Source: a virus (lineage: Duplodnaviria > Heunggongvirae > Uroviricota > Caudoviricetes). Taken from it: a DNA stretch of 12,944 nt. The number at the start of each line of letters is the position of its first letter. Position 1 is the first letter of the stretch. The notes under the pieces were generated by a model, which was not told where the DNA came from, did no database searches, and worked only from the letters and a program-made list of their open reading frames with translations. The position numbers and the translations under genes are program-made. The DNA lies in IMG/VR virus record IMGVR_UViG_2675903569_000005. One strand, 5' to 3'. Of the stretch, positions 2,553 to 10,933 are shown one piece after another.

Positions 2553-2810
2553 TTAGTTGTTCATAAAAGTGCACAGCTTTAACCAGTTCTTCTGATGTAA
2601 CCGGGACTGGCGGGGCAGTGAATAAGGCCTGAATTTCATAGTTCGGCCTGTCGTTACAATCCTCTTTTTTCGGTACATATTTCCAGTCACCAGACCACTA
2701 CTTCCCCTGAAAGTCCGTAACGCCTTTTTTTTCACGTAGCGATATCGCCATGCCACTGTTTTTGCTTGCCCCGCCGTTTCATGCCCTTCCTGATAATTAA
2801 CCTCGCTCAT
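2553..2810 (-). CDS. Hypothetical ORF, 85 aa in frame 1, with probable frame discontinuity; a start-less -1 frame stays open to 2494
   Basis: ATG at 2810 overlaps the stop of the upstream 58-aa gene (ATGA). The -1 frame is open from 2697 to a TGA at 2494..2496 and looks more protein-like (EDCNDRPNYEIQALFTAPPVPVTSEELVKAVHFYEQLKRENPPASGNLITDSQIRQ) but has no start codon. A8 and A6 homopolymers and an A-AAA-AAG heptamer sit at the frame junction. Confidence 0.35.
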   Translation of the reverse strand: MSEVNYQEGHETAGQAKTVAWRYRYVKKKALRTFRGSSGLVTGNMYRKKRIVTTGRTMKFRPYSLPRQSRLHQKNWLKLCTFMNN

Positions 2811-2983
2811 TCATCGCCCCACTCATCACAATATGCTTCGACCGGAGTTTTTCCTGCTTCATAATCATCACGCCATGCTTCAGCATCAGCAGCACTGCCA
2901 CCACGTAACTCTGCATAGTCCATTAACAGTTCATGCCATTCTTCAAAACTGACGTTGTATTTAGTTGAACCAAAATCAGCCAT
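2807..2983 (-). CDS. Small highly acidic protein, 58 aa; unknown function
   Basis: Not in the track (below 60 aa). Hand translation from ATG 2983: MADFGSTKYNVSFEEWHELLMDYAELRGGSAADAEAWRDDYEAGKTPVEAYCDEWGDE. Start overlaps the stop of the upstream 60-aa gene (ATGGCTGA) and its stop overlaps the next start (ATGA). 16 D/E against 4 K/R. Confidence 0.5.
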   Translation of the reverse strand: MADFGSTKYNVSFEEWHELLMDYAELRGGSAADAEAWRDDYEAGKTPVEAYCDEWGDE

Positions 2984-3158
2984 TTTGTTCTTCCTCTTCG
3001 TCTTTTATTTCGTGATATGAGTAATTGCAGTAGTTAAAGAAAATATCTTTTGCTTCGTCATGTATTTCATCAGGCGTCGCACCATCATCCACTTCGAATT
3101 CATCCTCGAAATCTCCACCGGCTATTCCCGTTTCAATAATTATTTTAAACTTTCGCAT
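2976..3158 (-). CDS. Small highly acidic protein, 60 aa; unknown function
   Basis: Track ORF MRKFKIIIETGIAGGDFEDEFEVDDGATPDEIHDEAKDIFFNYCNYSYHEIKDEEEEQNG, 19 D/E against 5 K/R. Translationally coupled to the 58-aa gene. Upstream is an AGGAGG followed by a GC hairpin and then the ATG. Confidence 0.5.
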   Translation of the reverse strand: MRKFKIIIETGIAGGDFEDEFEVDDGATPDEIHDEAKDIFFNYCNYSYHEIKDEEEEQNG

Positions 3159-3251
3159 TTAACTACCGCCCTTTCGGGCGGCCTCCTGATGTTCTGAGGG
3201 TGCAGAAATCCCTCCGGTTAAGGATTAAATTTTTAACAGAGCTAAATTTAA

Positions 3252-3608
3252 TTATTCAGTTCTGGATTTTGTCGCCCTGCGTATCCGCGCTTTCGCGTTA
3301 CGCTCAATCTGAATTAGCTTTTCTATATTTTTTCGCCTTTCCCGCTCCTCCTGACGCAAGAGCCTTACATCATCTGCCAGTCTGGTTTCTCTTTTCGCCA
3401 CAGAGAGCATCCAGTCAAATGGCTCCACAACTGCACCGCAGATTTTACAGCGGACCTGACGCTCTTTTTCGTCAACCCGGACAGAGGCGTGATGACAATA
3501 TGGTCTTTCCGATGGCTCATAAAGAAAATTAACCTGATTACGAGGGTCATCCTCTTTTACCGGAAATAAAACGATATTGCTTAACTCATCCTCTGGTTTT
3601 ATTTCCAT
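3252..3608 (-). CDS. Hypothetical protein with Cys/His cluster (CHH ... CKIC) and a basic, probably coiled-coil C-terminus, 118 aa
   Basis: ATG at 3608 preceded by AAGGAGAGGAG. The track ORF extends in frame to a GTG at 3665 (137 aa), which has its own AGGAGG upstream, so the start is ambiguous. Confidence 0.5.
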   Translation of the reverse strand: MEIKPEDELSNIVLFPVKEDDPRNQVNFLYEPSERPYCHHASVRVDEKERQVRCKICGAVVEPFDWMLSVAKRETRLADDVRLLRQEERERRKNIEKLIQIERNAKARIRRATKSRTE

Positions 3609-5951: not shown

Positions 5952-6014
5952 AGTTTAATAATCAAAACCAAAAAAGTCAAGAAACAAAACCATCTGTGTT
6001 TTAAAATCAAAACA
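5952..6014. promoter_or_regulatory. Divergent immunity control region: PR-like promoter for cro (minus), PRM-like promoter for the repressor (plus), and two operator copies
   Basis: Perfect 18-bp palindrome TGTTTT-N6-AAAACA at 5997..6014; imperfect copy AGTTTA-N6-AAAACC at 5952..5969. Minus-strand TTGACT (5980..5975)-N17-TAAACT (5957..5952). Plus-strand TAAAAT at 6002..6007, 6 nt before the repressor ATG. Confidence 0.5.
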
Positions 6015-6944: not shown

Positions 6945-7100
6945 ATGGATACTATCGATCTTGGCAACAGCGAATCTCTGGTATGTGGCGTGTTCCCCAA
7001 CCAGGACGGTACGTTCACCGTGATGACGTATACCAAAAGCAAAACGTTTAAAACCGAAAATGGTGCCCGTCGCTGGCTGGAAAGAAACTCAGGTGAGTGA
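6945..7100 (+). CDS. ydfA: YdfA-like small protein (DUF1391), 51 aa
   Basis: Internal ATG at 6945 with GAGG 5 nt upstream gives MDTIDLGNSESLVCGVFPNQDGTFTVMTYTKSKTFKTENGARRWLERNSGE, close to recalled Qin YdfA. The longer track ORF from 6864 has a poorer RBS. Confidence 0.75.
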   Translation: MDTIDLGNSESLVCGVFPNQDGTFTVMTYTKSKTFKTENGARRWLERNSGE

Positions 7101-7259: not shown

Positions 7260-7461
7260 ATGCAGAAACGAGAACCCGTCATCATCGCGCCAGACTATAC
7301 CGATGATGAACTTTATGNNNNNNNNNNCGCAGGATCTGAAATGGGCCAATGAAGCCAGGGCTAAGCAGGCTGAAAATCTGTCCGCTCTGGAGCAGGATAT
7401 CACCAGGCTGGAAAAAGCAGCGGCATTAAGCATTGCCAGAATGATTACATACCCGCGTTAA
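7260..7461 (+). CDS. ydfC: YdfC-like protein, interrupted by an N-gap at 7318..7327
   Basis: ATG at 7260 with GAGGAA upstream gives MQKREPVIIAPDYTDDELY, then the gap, then QDLKWANEARAKQAENLSALEQDITRLEKAAALSIARMITYPR to a TAA at 7459..7461. Frames either side of the gap differ by 1 nt, so the gap length is not faithful. Confidence 0.65.
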
Positions 7462-7801: not shown

Positions 7802-7854
7802 TTTCTGGTGACGTTTGGCGGTATCAGTTTTACTCCGTGACTGCTCTGCCGCCC
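7802..7854 (+). ncRNA. dicF: DicF small RNA (ftsZ-targeting sRNA of the dicB operon)
   Basis: TTTCTGGTGACGTTTGGCGGTATCAGTTTTACTCCGTGACTGCTCTGCCGCCC followed by TTTTT matches my recollection of the 53-nt DicF sequence, and it lies between ydfC and dicB as in Qin. Confidence 0.8.
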
Positions 7855-8028
7855 TTTTTAAAGTGAATTTTGTGATGTGGTGAATGCGGCTGAGCGCACG
7901 CGGAACAGTTAAAACCAAAAACAGTGTTATGGGTGGATTCTCTGTATCCGGCGTTAATTGTTAACTGGTTAACGTCACCTGGAGGCACCAGGCACCGCAT
8001 CACAAAACTCATTGTTGAGGGCGCGATA

Positions 8029-8217
8029 ATGAAAACGTTATTACCAAACGTTAATACGTCTGAAGGTTGTTTTGAAATTGGTGTCACTATCAGTAATCCT
8101 GTATTTACTGAAGAGGCCATTAACAAAAGAAAACACGAACGGGAGTTATTAAATAAAGTATGCATTGTTTCAATGCTGGCCCGTTTACGTCTGATGCCAA
8201 AAGGATGTGCACAATGA
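8029..8217 (+). CDS. dicB: Cell division inhibitor DicB, 62 aa
   Basis: ATG 8029 with GAGG upstream gives MKTLLPNVNTSEGCFEIGVTISNPVFTEEAINKRKHERELLNKVCIVSMLARLRLMPKGCAQ, matching recalled DicB. The track ORF carries an upstream in-frame extension. Confidence 0.85.
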   Translation: MKTLLPNVNTSEGCFEIGVTISNPVFTEEAINKRKHERELLNKVCIVSMLARLRLMPKGCAQ

Positions 8218-8405
8218 ATCCAGCATTTGCGCTTGTTCTGACGGTTTTTCTTGTTTCCGGAGAGCCAGTTGATATTGCAGTCAGTGTTCACAGAACAATG
8301 CAGGAATGTATGGCAGCAGCAACCGAACAGAAAATTCCCGGTAACTGTTACCCGGTCGATAAAGTTATTCACCAGGATAATATCGAAACCCCGGCAGGTC
8401 TTTAA
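8214..8405 (+). CDS. ydfD: YdfD-like small protein, 63 aa
   Basis: ATG 8214 overlaps the dicB stop (ATGA). Product MNPAFALVLTVFLVSGEPVDIAVSVHRTMQECMAAATEQKIPGNCYPVDKVIHQDNIETPAGL. Confidence 0.8.
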   Translation: MNPAFALVLTVFLVSGEPVDIAVSVHRTMQECMAAATEQKIPGNCYPVDKVIHQDNIETPAGL

Positions 8406-8477
8406 AACAGTTCCGTAATAAATATCCGGTTTCATTCTTATATGCCAGCAATGGCAGGGATTTGTTCNNNNNNNNNN

Positions 8478-8519
8478 ATTTGGCGGTATCAGTTTTACTC
8501 CGTGACTGCTCTGCCGCCC
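8478..8519 (+). ncRNA. dicF: Second DicF copy; 5' end hidden in the N-run
   Basis: ATTTGGCGGTATCAGTTTTACTCCGTGACTGCTCTGCCGCCC plus TTTTT is identical to the 3' 41 nt of copy 1 including the terminator. The 5' 11-12 nt fall in or next to the gap. Confidence 0.55.
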
Positions 8520-8693
8520 TTTTTAAAGTGAATTTTGTGATGCGGTGAATGCGGCTAAGCGCACGCGGAACAGTTAAAACCAAAAACAGTGTTATGGGTG
8601 GATTCTCTGTATCCGGCGTTAATTGTTAACTGGTTAACGTCACCTGGAGGCACCAGGCACCGCATCACAAAATTCATTGTTGAGGACGCGATA

Positions 8694-8882
8694 ATGGAAA
8701 CGTTATTACCAAACGTTAATACGTCTGAAGGTTGTTTTGAAATTGGTGTCACTATCAGTAACCCTGTATTTACTGAAGATGCCATTAACAAGAGAAAACA
8801 CGAACGGGAGTTATTAAATAAAATATGCATTCTTTCAATGCTGGCCCGTTTACGTCCGATACAAAAAGGATGTGCACAATGA
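8694..8882 (+). CDS. dicB: DicB paralog (copy 2), 62 aa, diverged
   Basis: METLLPNVNTSEGCFEIGVTISNPVFTEDAINKRKHERELLNKICILSMLARLRPIQKGCAQ. Differs from copy 1 at K2E, E28D, V44I, V47L and in the C-terminal LRLMPK to LRPIQK. Confidence 0.75.
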   Translation: METLLPNVNTSEGCFEIGVTISNPVFTEDAINKRKHERELLNKICILSMLARLRPIQKGCAQ

Positions 8883-9070
8883 ATACAGCATTTGCACTTG
8901 TTCTGACAGTTTTTCTTGTTTCCGGAGAGCCAGTTGATATTGCAGTCAGTGTTCACAGGACAATGCAGGAGTGTGTGACTGCAGCAACCGAACAGAAAAT
9001 TCCCGGTAACTGTTACCCGGTCGATAAAGTTATTCACCAGGATAATAACGAAATCCCGGCAGGTCTTTAA
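8879..9070 (+). CDS. ydfD: YdfD paralog (copy 2), 63 aa
   Basis: MNTAFALVLTVFLVSGEPVDIAVSVHRTMQECVTAATEQKIPGNCYPVDKVIHQDNNEIPAGL; start overlaps the dicB copy-2 stop. Confidence 0.75.
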   Translation: MNTAFALVLTVFLVSGEPVDIAVSVHRTMQECVTAATEQKIPGNCYPVDKVIHQDNNEIPAGL

Positions 9071-9162
9071 AACAGTTCCGTAATAAATATCCGGTTTCAT
9101 TCTTATATGCCAGCAATGGCAGGGATTTGTTCACCCTTAAATCTGTAATGAGGTAAAACAAA

Positions 9163-10933
9163 ATGAGTAAAGTCTTTATTTGCGCCGCCATTCCGGACGA
9201 ACAGGCAATAAAGGAAGAAGGTGCAGTCGCTGTAGCCACTGCCATTGAAGCCGGTGATGAACGTCGCGCCCGCGCAAAATTTCACTGGCAATTCCTGGAA
9301 CATNNNNNNNNNNNNNNNNTGAGGATAAACCCGGCATACCCCGCCCTGCCCTCGATTCCTGGGATGCTGAATATATGCAGGAAAACCGCTGGGATGAGGA
9401 GTCTGCTTCCTTTGTCCCGGTTGAGACTGAATCAGATCCGATGAACGTCACTTTTGACAAGTTGGCCCCTGAAGTACAGAACGCTGTCATGGTTAAGTTC
9501 GACACATGTGAAAACATCACCGTTGATATGGTTATTAGCGCACAGGAATTGTTGCAGGAAGACATGGCAACATTCGACGGACATATCGTTGAAGCGTTGA
9601 TGAAAATGCCAGAAGTTAACGCCATGTATCCGGAGCTTAAGCTGCATGCCATCGGGTGGGTTAAGCATAAATGTAAGCCTGGTGCCAAATGGCCCGAAAT
9701 TCAGGCAGAGATGCGCATCTGGAAAAAACGTCGCGAAGGTGAACGCAAGGAAACCGGAAAATACACGTCTGTTGTTGATCTCGCCCGCGCCAGAACCAAT
9801 CAACAGCACAGTGAAAATTCAACAGGAAAAATCAGCCCGGTCATTGCTGCCATTCATCGCGAATACAAGCAGACATGGAAAACACTGGATGACGAACTGG
9901 CCTACGCTCTCTGGCCTGGTGATGTGGATGCCNNNNNNNNNNNNNNNNNNNNNNNNNNNNNNNNNNNNNNNNNNNNNNNNNNNNNNNNNNNNNNNNNNNN
10001 NNNNNNNNNNNNNNNNNNNNNNNNNNGACTATTTTTGGCCTTGTCCGTGAACGTCCGATCGACATTCACAAAGACCCTGTGGCACTGAACAAATACATTA
10101 CTGAATACCTGACTACAAAGGGCGTGTTTGAAGATGAAGGAAGAAATCAGAGCGCAACTGATACTCTCTCGTCGCCAGTACCAGAAACTGATGCAGTGGA
10201 AACGGCAATGCCGGACAACGAAAAAACCGAATGCGAAATGGAAGACGAACCATCTGTAGAGCGTGAGGGACCGTTCTACTTCCTTTTCACCGATAAGGAC
10301 GGCGAAAAATACGGTCGCGCAAACAAACTTTCTGGTCTGGAAAAAGCACTGGCCCTGGGAGCTACGGAAATCACAAAAGAGGAATACTTCGCACGTAAAA
10401 ACGGCACGTACTCTGGTTCACAACAAAATACTGGTGCATCTGACACGATCGCACAACCAGAGCCGGTAAAAGTTACCGCTGACGAAGTAAACAAAATTAT
10501 GCAGGCAGCCAATATCAGCCAGCCTGACGCCAATAAGTTGCTTGCTGTATCACGTGGTGAATTTGTTGCAGGGATTAGCGACCCGAATGATCCGAAATGG
10601 GTGAAGGGGATTGAAACCCGCGATTCAGTGAATCAGAACCAGCAAGAAACGGAACAGAACGGCCAGAAAGCGGAACAAAACAGCCCAAATGCGTTACAAA
10701 ACGAGCCAGAAACGAAACAGCCTGAACCAGTGGCGCAACAGGAANNNNNNNNNNNNNNNNNNNNNNNNNNNNNNNNNNNNNNNNNNNNNNNNNNNNNNNN
10801 NNNNNNNNNNNNNNNNNNNNNNNNNNNNNNNNNNNAGGCGCTGAACATCCACACAAGGAGAACACTGACGGCAATCAGCATCACGATAGCGATAATGAAA
10901 CTGGCGAGACGGCAGATCACTCAATTAAGGTGA
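9163..10933 (+). CDS. RecE/YdfE-like N-terminal region (exonuclease VIII scaffold-like), broken by three N-gaps; may be one ORF with the downstream exonuclease domain, or a pseudogene
   Basis: Segments MSKVFICAAIPDEQAIKEEGAVAVATAIEAGDERRARAKFHWQFLEH / EDKPGIPRPALDSWDAEYMQENRWDEE... / TIFGLVRERPIDIHKDPVALNKYITEYL ... LLAVSRGEFVAGISDPNDPKWVKGIETRD resemble my recollection of YdfE/RecE N-terminal sequence. Each segment is open up to the adjoining gap. Frames across the gaps do not match the literal N lengths. Confidence 0.5.

Follow-up and report, generated by a model that had tools for sequence, protein, structure and literature searches.

Two overlapping genes in a prophage of E. coli encode proteins of 60 and 58 aa (here termed A60 and B58) of extreme acidity, and the locus raises the question of whether such small polyanionic proteins serve as DNA mimics or as anti-defence factors of another kind. 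The window, i.e. the whole stretch of 12,944 nt that was analysed (IMG/VR record IMGVR_UViG_2675903569_000005), represents a lambdoid prophage of E. coli (Qin/Rac type).

The gene pair and its junctions

The features of the locus are itemized here.

2976-3158, minus strand: the A60 gene, 60 aa, ATG to TGA, net charge -14 (open reading frame and translation)
2807-2983, minus strand: the B58 gene, 58 aa, ATG to TGA, net charge -12 (open reading frame)
2976-2983, minus strand: the 8-nt overlap of the A60 and B58 genes, ATGGCTGA (sequence)
2807-2810, minus strand: ATGA, shared by the B58 stop and the start of the following open reading frame (sequence)
2553-2810, minus strand: open reading frame for a basic 85-aa protein 3′ of B58, probably a decayed Ead/Ea22-like gene (in RefSeq 'frameshifted; internal stop')
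3165-3187, minus strand: AGGAGG (3182-3187) with a 7-bp GNRA-loop hairpin (3165-3182) (fold and conservation)
3252-3608, minus strand: gene for a protein with a zinc ribbon and a basic helix (PHROG 1621, WP_000403785.1; match to phrog_1621 with E = 3e-56)

The coordinates, the 8-nt overlap and the ATGA overlap given in the original prediction are all exact. The A60 gene passes into the B58 gene through ATGGCTGA, within which the A60 stop codon (read as AAT GGC TGA) falls inside the first codons of B58. Judged from its sequence the overlap is a putative translational-coupling junction, by which B58 would be coupled to A60, and the spacing of the two genes is unchanged in 79 of 80 IMG/VR loci. 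The same ATGGCTGA junction is found directly after a DUF1187 gene in an IncI2 plasmid, and in a Klebsiella plasmid there is an 8-nt overlap with a third, unrelated upstream gene, the product of which ends in HG. The xAT GGC TGA junction was read directly for A60 and DUF1187, while the third case is deduced from the annotated coordinates and the HG end. It would seem that the junction belongs to the B58 cassette.

Overlaps of 8 nt precede B58-family genes at 2976-2983 in the window, at 7001-7008 in locus L096 and at 6001-6008 in locus L097. The three genes on the 5′ side of B58-family genes, encoding A60, DUF1187 and a 140-aa membrane-like protein, are unrelated to one another.

Upstream of A60, the GNRA-loop hairpin stops 6 nt 5′ of the start codon in the computed fold; with the hairpin unfolded, the Shine-Dalgarno sequence AGGAGG lies 23 nt away from that codon. 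The element of 32 nt comprising AGGAGG and hairpin is exact in 74 fetched loci, including that of the Stx phage ArgO145, where it stays with A60 despite a different upstream gene. The variants of the hairpin have C-to-T changes (C to U in the RNA) that preserve G-U pairs, and a change of the loop from GAAA to GGCA, which is still GNRA. The element is possibly a split ribosome-binding site, or an mRNA-stabilizing hairpin, belonging to the A60 cassette.

Family membership

A60 is a full-length member of the Pfam family DUF7167 (PF23768), scoring 51.9 bits against a gathering cutoff of 24.4 (E = 8.2e-14), with its residues 2-53 aligned to positions 1-60 of the 60 in the profile. It also matches phrog_1997 (E = 6e-30), and RefSeq names the gene product 'DUF7167 family protein' (WP_001224662.1, differing by one residue, D26). 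No difference between A60 and DUF7167/PHROG 1997 was found; DUF7167 has no assigned function. The 121 relatives of A60 returned by a profile search are all stand-alone proteins of about 55-60 aa. DUF1187 was considered as a remote homologue of DUF7167 and rejected (hhalign probability 0.1%).

A60 as encoded in the window has glycine at position 26 (codon 3081-3083), where aspartate is present in 86% of the family and in all 81 other close E. coli-type copies. It is one nonsynonymous difference, in a column whose acidity is conserved.

B58 matches phrog_519 (E = 4.5e-23) over positions 76-137 of the 143 in the profile, and because only this part is covered some members of PHROG 519 would have an N-terminal extension. 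The product of orf183 of phage CBA120 matches the same region of the profile (E = 2.6e-22). B58 belongs to no Pfam family, and none of 39 relatives matches any family at a significant E-value. When 1.84 billion representative proteins were scanned exhaustively with HMMER, only 65 clusters of B58 relatives emerged, nearly all of them stand-alone proteins of 50-65 aa; in one match, of 127 aa, a frameshift has joined DUF1187 to B58.

It had been held earlier that neither sequence belonged to a recognised family and that the 58-aa gene would be invisible to a 60-aa cutoff. With A60 in DUF7167 and B58 in PHROG 519, the first statement does not stand, and in practice B58 is annotated, as RefSeq WP_000753060.1. 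Both genes are thus already annotated, in catalogued families of unknown function, and are less novel than had been supposed. Literature searches on both families, the accessions, the peptides, the lambdoid accessory region, IncI2 plasmids and Ackermannviridae transcriptomes found nothing relevant.

Conservation of acidity and purifying selection

A60 has 19 Asp or Glu residues compared with 5 Lys or Arg (pI 4.06), and B58 has 16 compared with 4 (pI 4.05), so that the rough net charges originally proposed agree with those computed. The median net charge is -12 for 51 relatives of A60 and -10 for 39 relatives of B58. Some 12 columns per family consist of Asp or Glu to 72% or more, and these two residues together make up 28-32% of the sequence. 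The acidity is therefore a trait of each family that is conserved position by position, and not a local accident.

Polymorphism among the near-identical E. coli copies is too sparse for a useful dN/dS, and more distant copies were used instead. Comparison of B58 with an 88%-identical copy from IncI2 plasmids gave dS = 0.69 and dN = 0.063, with dN/dS = 0.09. With a copy from an Enterobacter plasmid pS was 0.81 (saturated) and pN 0.10, and for A60 compared with a copy from a Klebsiella phage pS was again 0.81 (saturated) and pN 0.18. Both A60 and B58 are real genes under purifying selection.

Predicted structures

The AlphaFold2 models of both proteins are confident, with pLDDT of 89.8 for A60 and 88.9 for B58. 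A60 is predicted to fold as beta-beta-alpha, with strands at residues 2-8 and 17-23 and a helix at 29-43, followed by an ordered section (44-52) and an acidic tail of low confidence. Its conserved core comprises I8, F21, V23, I32, F40, C44 and Y46. B58 is predicted to be a three-helix mini-bundle (helices 13-26, 34-42 and 47-55), and its conserved core is hydrophobic and aromatic (F13, W16, W37, Y41, P47 and W55). The acidic columns of B58 lie in i/i+4 register on helix 1 (14/15, 18 and 22) and on helix 3 (49, 53 and 57). A structure search of BFVD returned only uncharacterised phage homologues, with no significant neighbour for either protein, and the predicted folds have no likeness to Ocr, ArdA or other solved structures.

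Comparison with known DNA mimics and inhibitors

Homology to known DNA mimics, anti-restriction proteins and anti-CRISPR proteins was sought and rejected, the searches of Pfam, NCBIfam, PADLOC and the PDB being empty or at chance level. A scan of Pfam-A at E ≤ 1 returned DUF7167 and a weak match to AnkX_ins for A60, and nothing for B58. Neither protein was matched by NCBIfam, and the PADLOC defence models at E ≤ 1 matched neither A60 and B58 nor three of their neighbours. Searches of PDB sequences with single sequences and with family profiles gave no match, or matches at chance level. Neither protein falls in the Ocr family by the Pfam and PDB searches, nor in the ArdA family by Pfam at E ≤ 1, and none of the 39 B58 relatives matches an anti-restriction family. 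The confident models resemble neither the elongated helical fold of Ocr nor the three-domain dimer of ArdA.

The likeness to these proteins is of another kind. Ocr (T7 gp0.3) and ArdA are strongly acidic, non-enzymatic and early, Ocr being found on phages and ArdA on plasmids and transposons. The dense conserved carboxylates of the class are present in A60 and B58, and B58 is like ardA in its distribution over temperate phages, virulent phages and conjugative plasmids. DNA mimics as a class carry carboxylates spaced like the phosphates of B-form DNA on a folded, usually dimeric, protein; what the alignment of B58 shows that bears on spacing is the i/i+4 stripes on helices 1 and 3. Both proteins are, however, much smaller than the classical mimics.

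Closer in size are T7 gp5.9, an acidic protein of 52 aa that inhibits RecBCD as a coiled-coil dimer and is encoded just 5′ of the exonuclease gene 6, and phi29 p56, an inhibitor of uracil-DNA glycosylase of 56 aa. A60 and B58 resemble these in size class, in acidity and in their place beside genes of DNA metabolism, and the A60 relatives of Guernseyvirinae are encoded just 5′ of an exonuclease gene, as is gene 5.9 before gene 6. No homology to either was detected, and the coiled-coil dimer of gp5.9 differs from the predicted beta-beta-alpha and three-helix folds. The nucleoid-protein mimics T4 Arn, T7 gp5.5 and SPO1 Gp46 are likewise small, acidic proteins of mobile elements, but here the likeness is pure analogy, with no sequence or structural link to A60 or B58 found.

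What stands of the DNA-mimic or anti-defence prediction is that the proteins are small, extremely acidic, apparently coupled and placed in an early operon. A DNA-mimic or anti-defence role for A60 and B58 is a plausible candidate function.

Relatives of A60 often lie beside genes of DNA metabolism

Relatives of A60 and of B58 at 40-60% identity occur in unrelated phage groups. In profile searches the distant loci have one family only, the other being absent within about 3 kb, and the two families are independently distributed. An obligate A60-B58 pair was therefore rejected, the families being apart outside the lambdoid phages of E. coli. The view of the two acidic genes as a pair thus holds for the E. 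coli lambdoid loci, where they are ordered and apparently coupled, and not as a general functional unit.

The relatives of A60 are found in phages and prophages, with almost none on plasmids (15 records). In Klebsiella Guernseyvirinae the gene overlaps the start of a PD-(D/E)XK/DUF2800 exonuclease gene, near those for SSB and PolA. In P22-like early-left regions it is located within 1-3 kb of the Erf, SSB, Dam and theta genes (in the order Arf, Erf, SSB, x, Dam, A60, theta, x, Exc, Int). Other relatives lie, likewise within 1-3 kb, beside GamL, DUF3799 and RecT or beside ERF, YqaJ and SSB, or directly after a SNF2 helicase, while in Enterococcus Herelleviridae the gene follows one for an ASCH/DUF3850 protein. 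In the window the pair comes after the replisome-organiser and DUF977 genes.

Such surroundings could mean that A60 and B58 serve the element's own replication or recombination machinery as accessory or regulatory subunits and do not inhibit host proteins, for example as acidic partners that tune a phage exonuclease, SSB or annealing protein. This reading, the main alternative, concerns mainly A60 and is possible but on balance doubtful. The adjacent gene changes in almost every lineage, with no consistent co-occurring partner family, and a specific link of A60 to exonucleases is weakened by the neighbour in Enterococcus phages that is annotated as an exonuclease but in a closely similar contig is matched by ASCH/DUF3850. 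Moreover, A60 is kept in the window although no Erf, RecT, Bet or Gam was noticed when the list of open reading frames over its 12.9 kb was read by eye. The accessory slot of temperate phages simply adjoins the recombination genes.

Relatives of B58 occur in virulent phages and on conjugative plasmids

The range of B58 is somewhat broader than expected, extending over temperate phages, virulent phages and epidemic resistance plasmids. Relatives are present in ~170 genomes of virulent phages of roughly 150-160 kb. Three of these large phages were inspected (CBA120, with orf183, Menlow and CRW-SP2); all are Ackermannviridae, and in them the B58 gene lies in a cluster of small genes 3′ of the major capsid gene.

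On plasmids, B58 relatives are found in 561 cases, of which 516 are conjugative. The 88%-identical copy (WP_000753050.1) occurs in >400 plasmids of E. coli, Salmonella and Shigella (~60 kb for those listed), which implies that lambdoid prophages and these plasmids have probably exchanged B58 recently, as judged by sequence identity. The one plasmid with this copy that was typed, pMCR_1884_B3, is IncI2 and carries mcr-1. Its gene string (6294-9148 of L096) comprises a CaiF/GrlA-type regulator, DUF1187, the B58 copy, SPFH and NfeD, followed by T4SS genes. The presence of this regulator in one string with B58, and of hha on the same plasmid, may be compared with the setting of nucleoid-protein mimics. 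More distant copies of B58 (49-59% identity) lie in clusters of hypothetical genes on large plasmids of Klebsiella, Raoultella and Aeromonas.

The relaxase and mobC genes of the IncI2 plasmid are at 53.9-58.6 kb. The position of oriT and the direction of entry were inferred by analogy with MOBP plasmids, and on this basis the B58 copy lies beyond repA on the leading side, ~15 kb and 26 open reading frames from oriT, with its transcription directed away from it. That B58 is a classical leading-region gene in IncI2 plasmids seems doubtful, its orientation and position being a poor fit.

Setting in the E. coli prophage

Of 5,426 complete E. coli genomes, 1,034 contain a near-identical segment of 1.3 kb (99.8% identity, coverage at least 80%). 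The genes on the same strand are, in the order annotated in RefSeq, Cro-like, YdaT, replisome organiser, DUF977, zinc-ribbon protein, DUF7167 (A60), hypothetical (B58), a frameshifted pseudogene, hokD, hypothetical, DUF968, RusA and antiterminator. No promoter-like or terminator-like site was found on this strand between the replication genes and A60-B58, and since none separates them the pair would belong to the delayed-early operon.

The pseudogene is the open reading frame at 2553-2810, the product of which is basic (pI 11). Its N-terminus (MSEVNYQ) is like that of the Ead/Ea22-like protein of phage ArgO145 (MSEIDYQ), in which an intact Ead/Ea22-like gene follows A60-B58. The pair lies in a different early region of ArgO145, among Ead/Ea22-like genes and upstream of the integrase end.

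On the 5′ side, the 80 IMG/VR loci of the E. coli type usually begin with the zinc-ribbon protein, followed in some cases by an acidic protein of 70 aa and then by A60 and B58, the zinc-ribbon protein being present in 78 of them. This protein has a weak match to the TFIIB zinc ribbon and a long basic helix, and for the 137-aa reading frame that begins at an upstream GTG its pI is 9.4. The zinc-ribbon-A60-B58 cassette duplicates and shuffles among Ead/Ea22-like genes. One IMG/VR locus has the cassette twice, with an Ead/Ea22-like gene between the copies, and two others have a second zinc-ribbon gene and a second gene for the 70-aa acidic protein.

The constancy of this order, and the basic character of the zinc-ribbon protein, would suit a role for the acidic proteins in neutralizing or chaperoning a basic neighbour in the cassette (the zinc-ribbon or the Ead/Ea22-like protein), as antidote or assembly factor. 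This seems distinctly unlikely. In profile searches the zinc-ribbon protein was not found near distant relatives of A60 or B58, which also lack each other within about 3 kb; in IncI2 plasmids it is DUF1187 that precedes B58 instead; and both proteins fold confidently alone in the AlphaFold2 models.

The prophage is very common in E. coli and carries other genes that affect the host, hokD/sok and DicF/dicB, so that lysogenic conversion or exclusion might be considered, with A60 and B58 benefiting the lysogen by, for example, blocking a competing phage. The pair is nevertheless embedded, with no promoter-like site of its own, in a lytic operon that is repressed in the lysogen, and strictly virulent phages, too, have retained both families; such a function is quite improbable. 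That A60 and B58 are chance reading frames or decaying passengers can be dismissed as extremely improbable, for although the downstream neighbour is a pseudogene and the databases hold many truncated or frameshifted copies, the low dN/dS of B58, the deep conservation over phage families and plasmids, the confident structure models and the conserved coupling junction and upstream hairpin all stand against it.

Discussion

The reading that we favour, tentatively and with less than even confidence, is that A60 and B58 are stoichiometric polyanionic binders of a host nucleic-acid-binding protein, acting in counter-defence or host takeover. Each would be a compact accessory protein of mobile genetic elements, non-enzymatic and distinct from the other, and both would be made from the delayed-early operon of the prophage, with translation of B58 coupled to that of A60. 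Each would present a conserved polyanionic surface on a small rigid scaffold, which in A60 is a predicted beta-hairpin, helix and acidic tail, and in B58 a predicted three-helix mini-bundle with i/i+4 stripes of Asp and Glu. By binding stoichiometrically to the nucleic-acid-binding surface of a host protein, perhaps a defence or repair nuclease or a nucleoid-associated protein, they would, like DNA mimics, make the host less able to interfere with foreign DNA as it enters or replicates. Protein binding, the anionic surface as the working part and the identity of the targets are what we infer here.

Several observations are consistent with such binders. Neither protein has a catalytic or DNA-binding signature, and both occupy exchangeable accessory slots in early or DNA-metabolism operons, B58 also in slots on plasmids. 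Relatives of A60 adjoin Erf, RecT, SSB, exonuclease, Dam and theta genes, and inhibitors of the Gam, Abc2 and gp5.9 type are found in the neighbourhoods of recombination and exonuclease genes. Against this, there is no homology or likeness of fold to any known DNA mimic or anti-defence protein. On the IncI2 plasmid B58 heads the SPFH/NfeD/T4SS string, outside the set of leading-region genes that point toward oriT; because it heads that string and is transcribed away from oriT, its position there does not point to a function in establishment. In the virulent phages inspected its place 3′ of the major capsid gene may likewise tell against a binder of this kind.

A more specific form of the same proposal is that B58 represents a new minimal nucleic-acid-mimic fold (~45 residues in three helices), used alike by temperate phages, by virulent Ackermannviridae and by conjugative plasmids, IncI2 among them. 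Its single target, which it would disable, would be a conserved DNA-binding protein of enterobacteria, whether a defence nuclease or a nucleoid silencer such as H-NS. A60 would then act as another inhibitor, specific to phages, of a host enzyme that processes DNA ends, for instance RecBCD. In this full form the proposal is unlikely.

Should either protein prove to act in counter-defence or host takeover, it would represent a new and very small family of inhibitors. Its reach would be unusually wide, extending to about a fifth of complete E. coli genomes, to an entire family of virulent phages considered for therapy, and to the IncI2 plasmids that spread mcr-1 and with it colistin resistance. 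A target common to these elements would indicate a function of the host that phages and plasmids alike have to neutralize. If they are ordinary accessory factors, the analysis provides genomic context and structure models for two domains of unknown function.

Other features of the prophage

A hokD toxin open reading frame and a full-length match to the sok antitoxin RNA (112 bits) lie at 1729-2054 on the minus strand, ~750 nt downstream of the pair. There are two matches to the DicF sRNA, at 7803-7854 and at 8478-8519, the second of which is cut by a run of N, together with two copies of a dicB-like open reading frame (7924-8217 and 8589-8882). This arrangement indicates that the DicF-dicB segment of the prophage is tandemly duplicated. 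The long antisense open reading frames (7830-8435 and 8555-9100) are probably not genuine. In the left arm of the prophage there are five runs of N, totalling 221 bases (7318-7327, 8468-8477, 9304-9319, 9933-10026 and 10745-10835), and open reading frames that span them are unreliable. The E. coli-type segment is also present, at ~92% identity, in the record PP818812.1 (Actinobacillus phage vB_Apl-pPE4), the host assignment of which may need checking.
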